Below, one piece after another: positions 3,486 through 3,546 of a stretch of 12,015 nucleotides of DNA (positions are counted from its first letter, which is position 1; the number at the start of each line of letters is the position of its first letter). The stretch lies in the IMG/VR virus record IMGVR_UViG_2703718843_000006; one strand, given 5' to 3'. The notes below the pieces were generated by a model. It was given only the letters and a program-made list of their open reading frames with translations. It did no database searches and had not been told where the DNA came from. This stretch comes from a virus. Its lineage: Duplodnaviria; Heunggongvirae; Uroviricota; Caudoviricetes. A program made the position numbers and the translations under genes.

Positions 3486-3546
3486 AATTGTGTCGTGGCT
3501 GACACAAGCGCACTATCGGTGCTCAGTGTGTGGTAGCTGGCACAAC
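3486..3546 (-). promoter_or_regulatory. Putative Delta/Ogr-dependent late promoter (Psid-like) with two TGTG-N10-CACA dyads
   Basis: Dyad A TTGTGTC-N6-GACACAA at 3488-3507 (centre 3497.5) and dyad B TGTG-N10-CACA at 3527-3544 (centre 3535.5), 38 bp apart, 43 and 81 bp upstream of the sid-like ATG. Both fit the TGT-N12-ACA activator-site consensus of P2/P4 late promoters. Confidence 0.5.

Follow-up and report, generated by a model that had tools for sequence, protein, structure and literature searches.

Upstream of a sid-like gene in the window, the whole 12,015-bp stretch of DNA analysed here, lie two short inverted repeats. The question raised by this locus is whether they are the activator sites of a late promoter and, if so, what the second of the two contributes. 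The reading preferred here, to which a probability of roughly 0.88 is assigned, is that the dyads belong to the late sid promoter of a P4-like satellite, a promoter activated by an Ogr/Delta protein at the dyad near -55 and carrying a second conserved dyad near -18. As a P4-type sid promoter it is of a well-known kind and does not represent a new mechanism; since promoters of this type are textbook P2/P4 biology, the result is mainly a secure annotation, with a modest comparative gain in that the two-site, 38-bp architecture proved universal among the sid operons sampled.

The dyads and the promoter core

The preliminary description had reported two perfect TGTG-N10-CACA dyads 38 bp apart upstream of the sid-like gene and had identified them with the TGT-N12-ACA element recognised by Ogr/Delta activators. 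An exact search of the window agreed, returning two matches with starts 38 bp apart: a proximal dyad (site II) at 3489-3506 (TGTGTCGTGGCTGACACA; TGTGTCAGCCACGACACA when read on the minus strand) and a distal dyad (site I) at 3527-3544 (TGTGTGGTAGCTGGCACA; minus-strand reading TGTGCCAGCTACCACACA). Both are exact matches, their arms fit the TGT-N12-ACA element without a mismatch, and P4 has TGT-N12-ACA dyads at the same offsets from its sid ATG. By shuffling, 0.16 matches to TGTG-N10-CACA were expected, and two or more were obtained in 3 of 200 shuffles. The looser TGT-N12-ACA pattern occurred four times in the window against 2.5 expected, without enrichment, the other two perfect matches (at 1216 and 8980) falling within coding sequence; the significance of the dyads therefore rests on their position and conservation and not on their count. 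A gap of 400 bp separates the primase stop (3855) from the sid ATG, whose A is at 3454. Both dyads are located in it, centred 43.5 nt (proximal) and 81.5 nt (distal) upstream of that A.

With the distal dyad set at -55.5 by the geometry of the P2 promoters, minus-strand transcription is predicted to begin at about 3480. This position is 7 nt past the -10-like hexamer CACAAT (3487-3492, minus strand; four of six positions match TATAAT), which overlaps the right arm of the proximal dyad, and is 55.5 nt from the centre of the distal dyad (3535.5) and about 26 nt before the ATG, placing the proximal centre (3497.5) at a predicted -17.5. It had been suggested earlier that the dyads would be centred near -18 and -56 if the start lay 25 nt before the ATG. 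The arithmetic gives -18.5 and -56.5, and a leader of about 25 nt agrees both with the annotated P2 geometry and with the position of CACAAT. A Shine-Dalgarno sequence for the sid-like gene, AGGAG, can be read at 3460-3464 on the minus strand.

No sigma-70 consensus promoter was found on either strand when positions 3300-3950 were scanned, and a recognisable -35 hexamer is absent, the best candidate matching at two of six positions. The core is thus a poor one, consisting of a weak -10 and no -35, as expected of an activator-dependent promoter. A third upstream repeat with a 14-nt unit (3561-3574, family D4) was considered and set aside, being neither conserved nor furnished with TGT/ACA arms.

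The operon and its counterparts in P4 and P2

The first gene of the late operon (2693-3454, minus strand) encodes a 253-aa protein of the Pfam Psu family. This protein was matched end to end by phrog_6165 (242 positions, E 2.6e-94) and is collinear with P4 Sid (24% identity, E 2e-13), whereas its match to P4 Psu is merely local; judged by these alignments it is Sid rather than Psu, and the earlier naming of the gene as sid-like was well founded. The next gene, delta (2421-2693, minus strand), encodes a 90-aa protein with a single Ogr/Delta zinc finger (PF04606, E 3.9e-16) in which the CX2CX22CX4C motif is present; it is 47% identical to P2 Ogr and aligns to each half of P4 Delta. The delta start overlaps the sid stop (TGATG) and is preceded by GGAGG, an arrangement by which delta is translationally coupled to sid. 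Downstream of the dyads are therefore found genes for helper exploitation, a Sid homologue followed by a coupled Delta with psu absent, and in the 90-aa Delta a cognate C4 zinc-finger activator.

The window represents a satellite prophage of the P4 type, located at a tRNA-Arg gene (10936-11007) in the chromosome of E. coli AH21. The 1.5 kb surrounding the dyads is 100% identical to strain AH21 (NZ_CP081711.1), and DNA similar to this region was found in 856 of 5,426 complete E. coli genomes. Gene content was established from the RefSeq annotation and domain scans. The island, of about 10 kb, adjoins the tRNA-Arg gene, and all of its genes are on the minus strand save one 57-aa plus-strand ORF. 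They comprise an integrase (9477-10748), an AlpA-family regulator (8105-8320) with a gene for a 324-aa hypothetical protein between the two, an Icd-like peptide and two small ORFs after the AlpA-family gene, a DUF5375 protein of the family of P4 orf106, an 890-aa primase with zinc-ribbon, TOPRIM and DUF927 domains (3855-6527) and a 663-aa GHKL-type ATPase (1-1992). The core genes of a P4-like satellite recovered in this way were those for integrase, AlpA, TOPRIM-DUF927 primase, DUF5375, Sid and Delta, and the core set of such elements (integrase, alpA, primase, sid/psu, delta, cos and a tRNA site) is represented as a whole; neither psu nor a recognisable epsilon was detected in the window element.

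The likeness of the arrangement to P4 Psid that had been pointed out earlier was borne out by the P4 record (NC_001609), in which the only perfect TGT-N12-ACA dyads near sid lie at 9493-9510 and 9531-9548. As in the window, a spacing of 38 bp separates the dyads of P4 Psid (about 9493-9583), whose centres precede the ATG by 81.5 and 43.5 nt, CACAAT(T) overlaps the proximal dyad, there is no -35, and the promoter drives sid and then an Ogr/Delta gene; iterons of the replication origin, a probable one in the window, lie just upstream. Between the distal dyad and the ATG the promoters can be aligned with no gap; both dyads and CACAATT coincide, while the dyad interiors differ. The second dyad specific to Psid, about 38 bp downstream of the first, thus has its counterpart at 3489-3506, and the alignment indicates that the region is positionally orthologous to P4 Psid. 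Julien and Calendar are said to have found in 1995 that Delta leaves a footprint at -55 on each of the six P2/P4 late promoters and an additional one at -18 on Psid, and Psid was reportedly dissected further by Reiter et al. in 1998.

Around this shared layout the two elements differ considerably. The dyad interiors and flanks have diverged along with Sid; the window operon is sid-delta without psu; its Delta has one finger in 90 aa, whereas P4 Delta is a tandem two-finger protein of 166 aa; and its 890-aa TOPRIM-DUF927 primase is unlike that of P4. The replication operon of the window is on the same strand as sid and upstream of it, whereas in P4 vis/alpA diverges from sid. A DNA search of phage records with the region gave no match, the DNA of P4 having diverged too far, and homology was for this reason shown through proteins and positional alignment. 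P4 has a second Delta/Ogr-dependent promoter, PLL, upstream of its left operon, with one TGT-N12-ACA dyad (9133-9150); no counterpart of PLL was found in the window, where neither the alpA-like gene nor the replication operon is preceded by a perfect dyad.

Between the primase stop and the sid promoter (3632-3811) lie eight copies of the iteron GGTGGAACA in both orientations; at up to one mismatch, 10 copies were counted in the whole window against 2.4 expected. The unit resembles the P4 ori type-1 repeat GGTGAACA with one extra G, and the array is probably the replication origin of the element, situated beside Psid as in P4.

The P2 late promoters PP, PO, PV and PF have a dyad of the TGT-N12-ACA type at about -55, the position predicted for the distal dyad of the window, and are served by a small zinc-finger activator. 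In the P2 record, the activator sites, measured from their centres, precede the annotated starts by 55-56 nt (PO/PP), 55.5 nt (PV, from the midpoint of the binding site as annotated) and about 58 nt (PF). The proposed comparison with P2 and P4 late promoters gave an identical layout in P4 and activator sites at -55 to -58 in P2. Unlike the window, each of these P2 promoters has one site and none has a site at -18. Furthermore, the sites of PO, PP and PF are imperfect, with five of six arm bases, whereas the dyads of the window are perfect; from the imperfect helper sites it follows that a perfect match is neither necessary nor sufficient. The Ogr-dependent P2 late promoters are known to share TGT-N12-ACA, and Ogr itself carries CX2CX22CX4C (PMC3931495). 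Its binding sites are inverted repeats at about -55, and activation requires that it touch the alpha subunit of RNA polymerase (PMC3152322). Ogr and its P4 homologue, Delta, each activate the late genes of both P2 and P4 (PMC8628076), and psu, delta and sid have been described as contiguous and transcribed from a single promoter (PMC13586616).

Conservation and proposed role of the two-dyad promoter

Conservation of the promoter was followed in 65 related loci, seven from reference genomes and 58 from viral contigs by means of a Sid-alignment scan, whose Sid proteins are 44-97% identical to that of the window. A single-protein scan of genome contigs recovered close relatives only (85-95% identical), and the diversity of the loci came from the alignment-based scan of viral contigs. 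All 67 sequences (the window, P4 and the 65 loci) have two TGT-N12-ACA dyads at a near-constant distance from the ATG, with a spacing of 38 bp throughout except in one lineage, where it is 39 bp. They reduce to 40 distinct promoters in five lineages, or at least six once a lineage (L104) from the pattern scan described below is added. Across five lineage representatives, P4 included, the 12 arm columns and CACAAT are 100% identical, against 40% identity at the 24 dyad-interior positions, 43% in the inter-dyad segment and 25% in the upstream flank; the footprint is therefore conserved in orthologous promoters. Although situated outside the -10, the left arm of the proximal dyad, TTGT (about -27 to -24), does not vary between lineages, which argues that the proximal element is conserved as a dyad and not merely as a -10. 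The symmetry is longer in most lineages, reaching TTGT-N12-ACAA.

A gene for an Ogr/Delta protein lies downstream of sid at every locus with enough DNA. At all loci other than P4 it encodes a single-finger protein of 90-124 aa, the tandem 166-aa form being confined to P4, and the two-site promoter is consequently not an adaptation to a tandem activator. Many relatives have a Psu-like gene between sid and delta, while the lineage of the window is without psu. The promoter layout is also unchanged between the lineage of the window, with the primase upstream on the same strand, and the P4 arrangement, with divergent vis/alpA. The two-dyad architecture thus follows the sid operon and not its neighbourhood; it is independent of the tandem Delta of P4 and survives major rearrangement of the element.

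Specificity was assessed by an unbiased scan of viral contigs with the proximal pattern only (TTGT-N11-CACAATTGAC), which gave at least 122 matches. Among the 122 matches listed, 20 had a second TGT-N12-ACA exactly 38 bp upstream, and it was exactly these 20 that had an ORF of the sid/psu family immediately downstream; the remaining 102 listed had neither a second dyad nor such an ORF. The same scan added the sixth Sid lineage (L104, 39% identity). The combination TTGT-N12-ACA and, 38 bp away, TTGT-N11-CACAAT is therefore a precise signature for finding satellite late operons, and it provides a defined target for probing the function of the -18 site.

Two further observations were made among these loci. 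In L031-L037, from viral contigs, Sid is 80-86% identical to that of the window, while the first 6-12 sid codons and the whole promoter come from a different lineage than those of the window and the upstream genes are in the P4 arrangement, which suggests that recombination took place at a breakpoint a short way into sid from its 5' end. On one viral contig from the pattern scan (L166), the two-dyad promoter directly drives a 184-aa Psu-like gene with no intervening sid.

By homology with the P2 and P4 systems we infer the start site, the binding of and dependence on an activator, and the contact with the alpha subunit. As far as sequence can show, every part of the earlier interpretation, in which the late operon is activated by the element's own Delta or a helper Ogr, held good. 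The region would be a weak sigma-70 promoter, with CACAAT and no -35, starting near 3480 and predicted to be silent alone. A zinc-finger activator of the Ogr/Delta type would bind the dyad at about -55 and recruit RNA polymerase through the C-terminal domain of the alpha subunit, a route proposed because it is established for P2 late promoters. The activator may be the element's own 90-aa Delta, in which case a positive feedback loop would arise, since delta stands second in the operon that its product would activate. It may also be the Ogr of a P2-like helper phage, which would couple the redirection of capsid size by Sid to the late gene expression of the helper. In the likeliest circuit, helper Ogr or a little Delta would fire the promoter through the -55 site, yielding Sid and more Delta. 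The dyad promoter would then be the switch that brings on both Sid, for capsid-size redirection, and the transactivator Delta in a family of satellites often met in E. coli.

The proximal dyad, which is conserved as strongly as the distal one, most likely accommodates a second unit of the activator. The -18 dyad is invariant and lies 38-39 bp from the -55 dyad in all sampled sid/psu operons, whatever the architecture of Delta, and the late promoters of the helper itself lack it. That activation might depend on it as an obligatory feature peculiar to satellites is a speculative proposal, and an unlikely one. On this view, a pair of perfect sites could be occupied cooperatively by two activator units, the proximal site making up for the absent -35 contact, and the satellite promoter could in this way out-compete the single, imperfect sites of the helper for limiting Ogr. 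It was also considered that the promoter is the same and that the proximal dyad acts as an auto-limiting operator, at which high levels of Delta would occlude the -10 and so cap the feedback loop. The overlap of this dyad with the -10 hexamer is what such an operator would call for, a brake would be useful where delta lies within the operon that it activates, and the promoters of the P2 helper function with nothing at -18. However, the strict spacing of 38-39 bp and the invariance of the site fit cooperative binding equally well, and a role in auto-limitation is held to be possible, if doubtful.

Other explanations would remove the dyads from the sid promoter in whole or in part. As the dyads are symmetric, and as the P2 record annotates one shared site for the back-to-back promoters PO and PP, they might also, or instead, serve a divergent promoter firing on the plus strand into the iteron region, where the probable replication origin is 90-270 bp away. 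The scan of 3300-3950 showed nothing resembling a -10/-35 pair on either strand, however, and inspection by eye revealed no plus-strand hexamer like a -10 at the right distance; no gene reads in the plus direction there, and that side is unconserved between lineages (25% identity), all of which makes a divergent promoter very unlikely. The closeness of the dyads to the eight iterons could be taken to mean that they are replication-origin sites binding the primase/helicase and not a promoter at all, but the dyad and iteron sequences are unrelated, the dyads are unchanged where primase type, iterons and gene order differ, and among the matches listed they track the sid/psu gene one to one; a function at the origin is accordingly regarded as highly improbable. 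Short TGT/ACA arms are frequent, and TGTG...CACA superficially resembles the half-sites of host factors such as CRP. Chance or a host factor is nevertheless scarcely credible as the source of arms that are 100% conserved at fixed positions in at least six lineages while their interiors diverge. The CRP core is TGTGA-N6-TCACA, with 8 bp between TGTG and CACA, whereas the dyads have 10 bp there. In addition, the RNA fold of the region was no better than that of shuffled sequences (z = -0.09), on which ground, and with Rfam finding tRNA only, a reading of the region as an RNA structure was also rejected.

Other features of the satellite

When 2421-6527 of the window was compared with loci L031-L067, the replication operon, from alpA to the TOPRIM-DUF927 primase, proved co-directional with sid-delta and immediately upstream of it in the window; other lineages have kept the divergent vis/sid arrangement of P4 together with a P4-type alpha. 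No terminator was detected by the scan between the primase gene and sid, and it is conceivable that transcripts of the primase gene read through into sid-delta. As part of the speculative proposal on the -18 dyad, such read-through could supply the first Delta, making ignition of the late operon partly independent of the helper.

Further upstream in several relatives there is a palindrome, (C)TGGCTAGCCA(G), which is kept in L041, L044, L060, L104, L166 and P4 (L001, 9462-9480). It is centred about 24-27 bp upstream of the centre of the distal dyad, roughly at -80 to -82 from the predicted start, and in some lineages its arms reach 14 bp and are followed by a T-run. Its counterpart in the window, TGGCTTTCATAGCCA (3570-3584), is displaced upstream. 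In L041 the palindrome forms a strong terminator-like hairpin (z = -2.4); a general role as terminator was rejected, as this was the only one of five sequences tested to give a convincing fold.

Downstream of delta, a G+C-rich hairpin followed by a T-run was seen by eye on the minus strand (about 2195-2235 / 2374-2399); the terminator scan missed it and instead gave GCATGAGTCTCATGC with a T-run at 2314-2300. Beyond the hairpin is a cos-like sequence (GGCGGGCGGGGCTGCGCAC / GAAGCGGGCAGGCGGGCGGGGCTGCGCAC), in which GAAGCGGGCAGGCGGGCGGGGCTGCGCAC resembles the P4/P2 cos junction, GCGGGCG followed by GGCGAGGCGGGGAAAGCAC.

A perfect inverted repeat at 8331-8358, with arms of 10 bp and a loop of 8 nt (CTGCCGTGTT-CATTACAT-AACACGGCAG), abuts the ribosome-binding site of the alpA-like gene on its upstream side and could be an operator or an attenuator hairpin. 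The sole plus-strand gene of the island, the 57-aa ORF at 7882-8055 (MSTPKEKRSPPFQMRLTDEFRRQLEDE...), lies between the alpA-like and Icd-like genes, the position of the immunity region in P4; it gave no Pfam match and has, by eye, the look of a ribbon-helix-helix repressor.

The GHKL-type ATPase (1-1992, minus strand) combines an HATPase_c_3 domain with a weak HSDR_N_2 nuclease-like region, matches phrog_6203 (function unknown) and was weakly matched by PADLOC to REase_II (E 2e-8). Its gene, flanked by the cos-like site on one side and the island's end on the other, occupies the position of the defence hotspot in P4 and is a candidate for anti-phage cargo.
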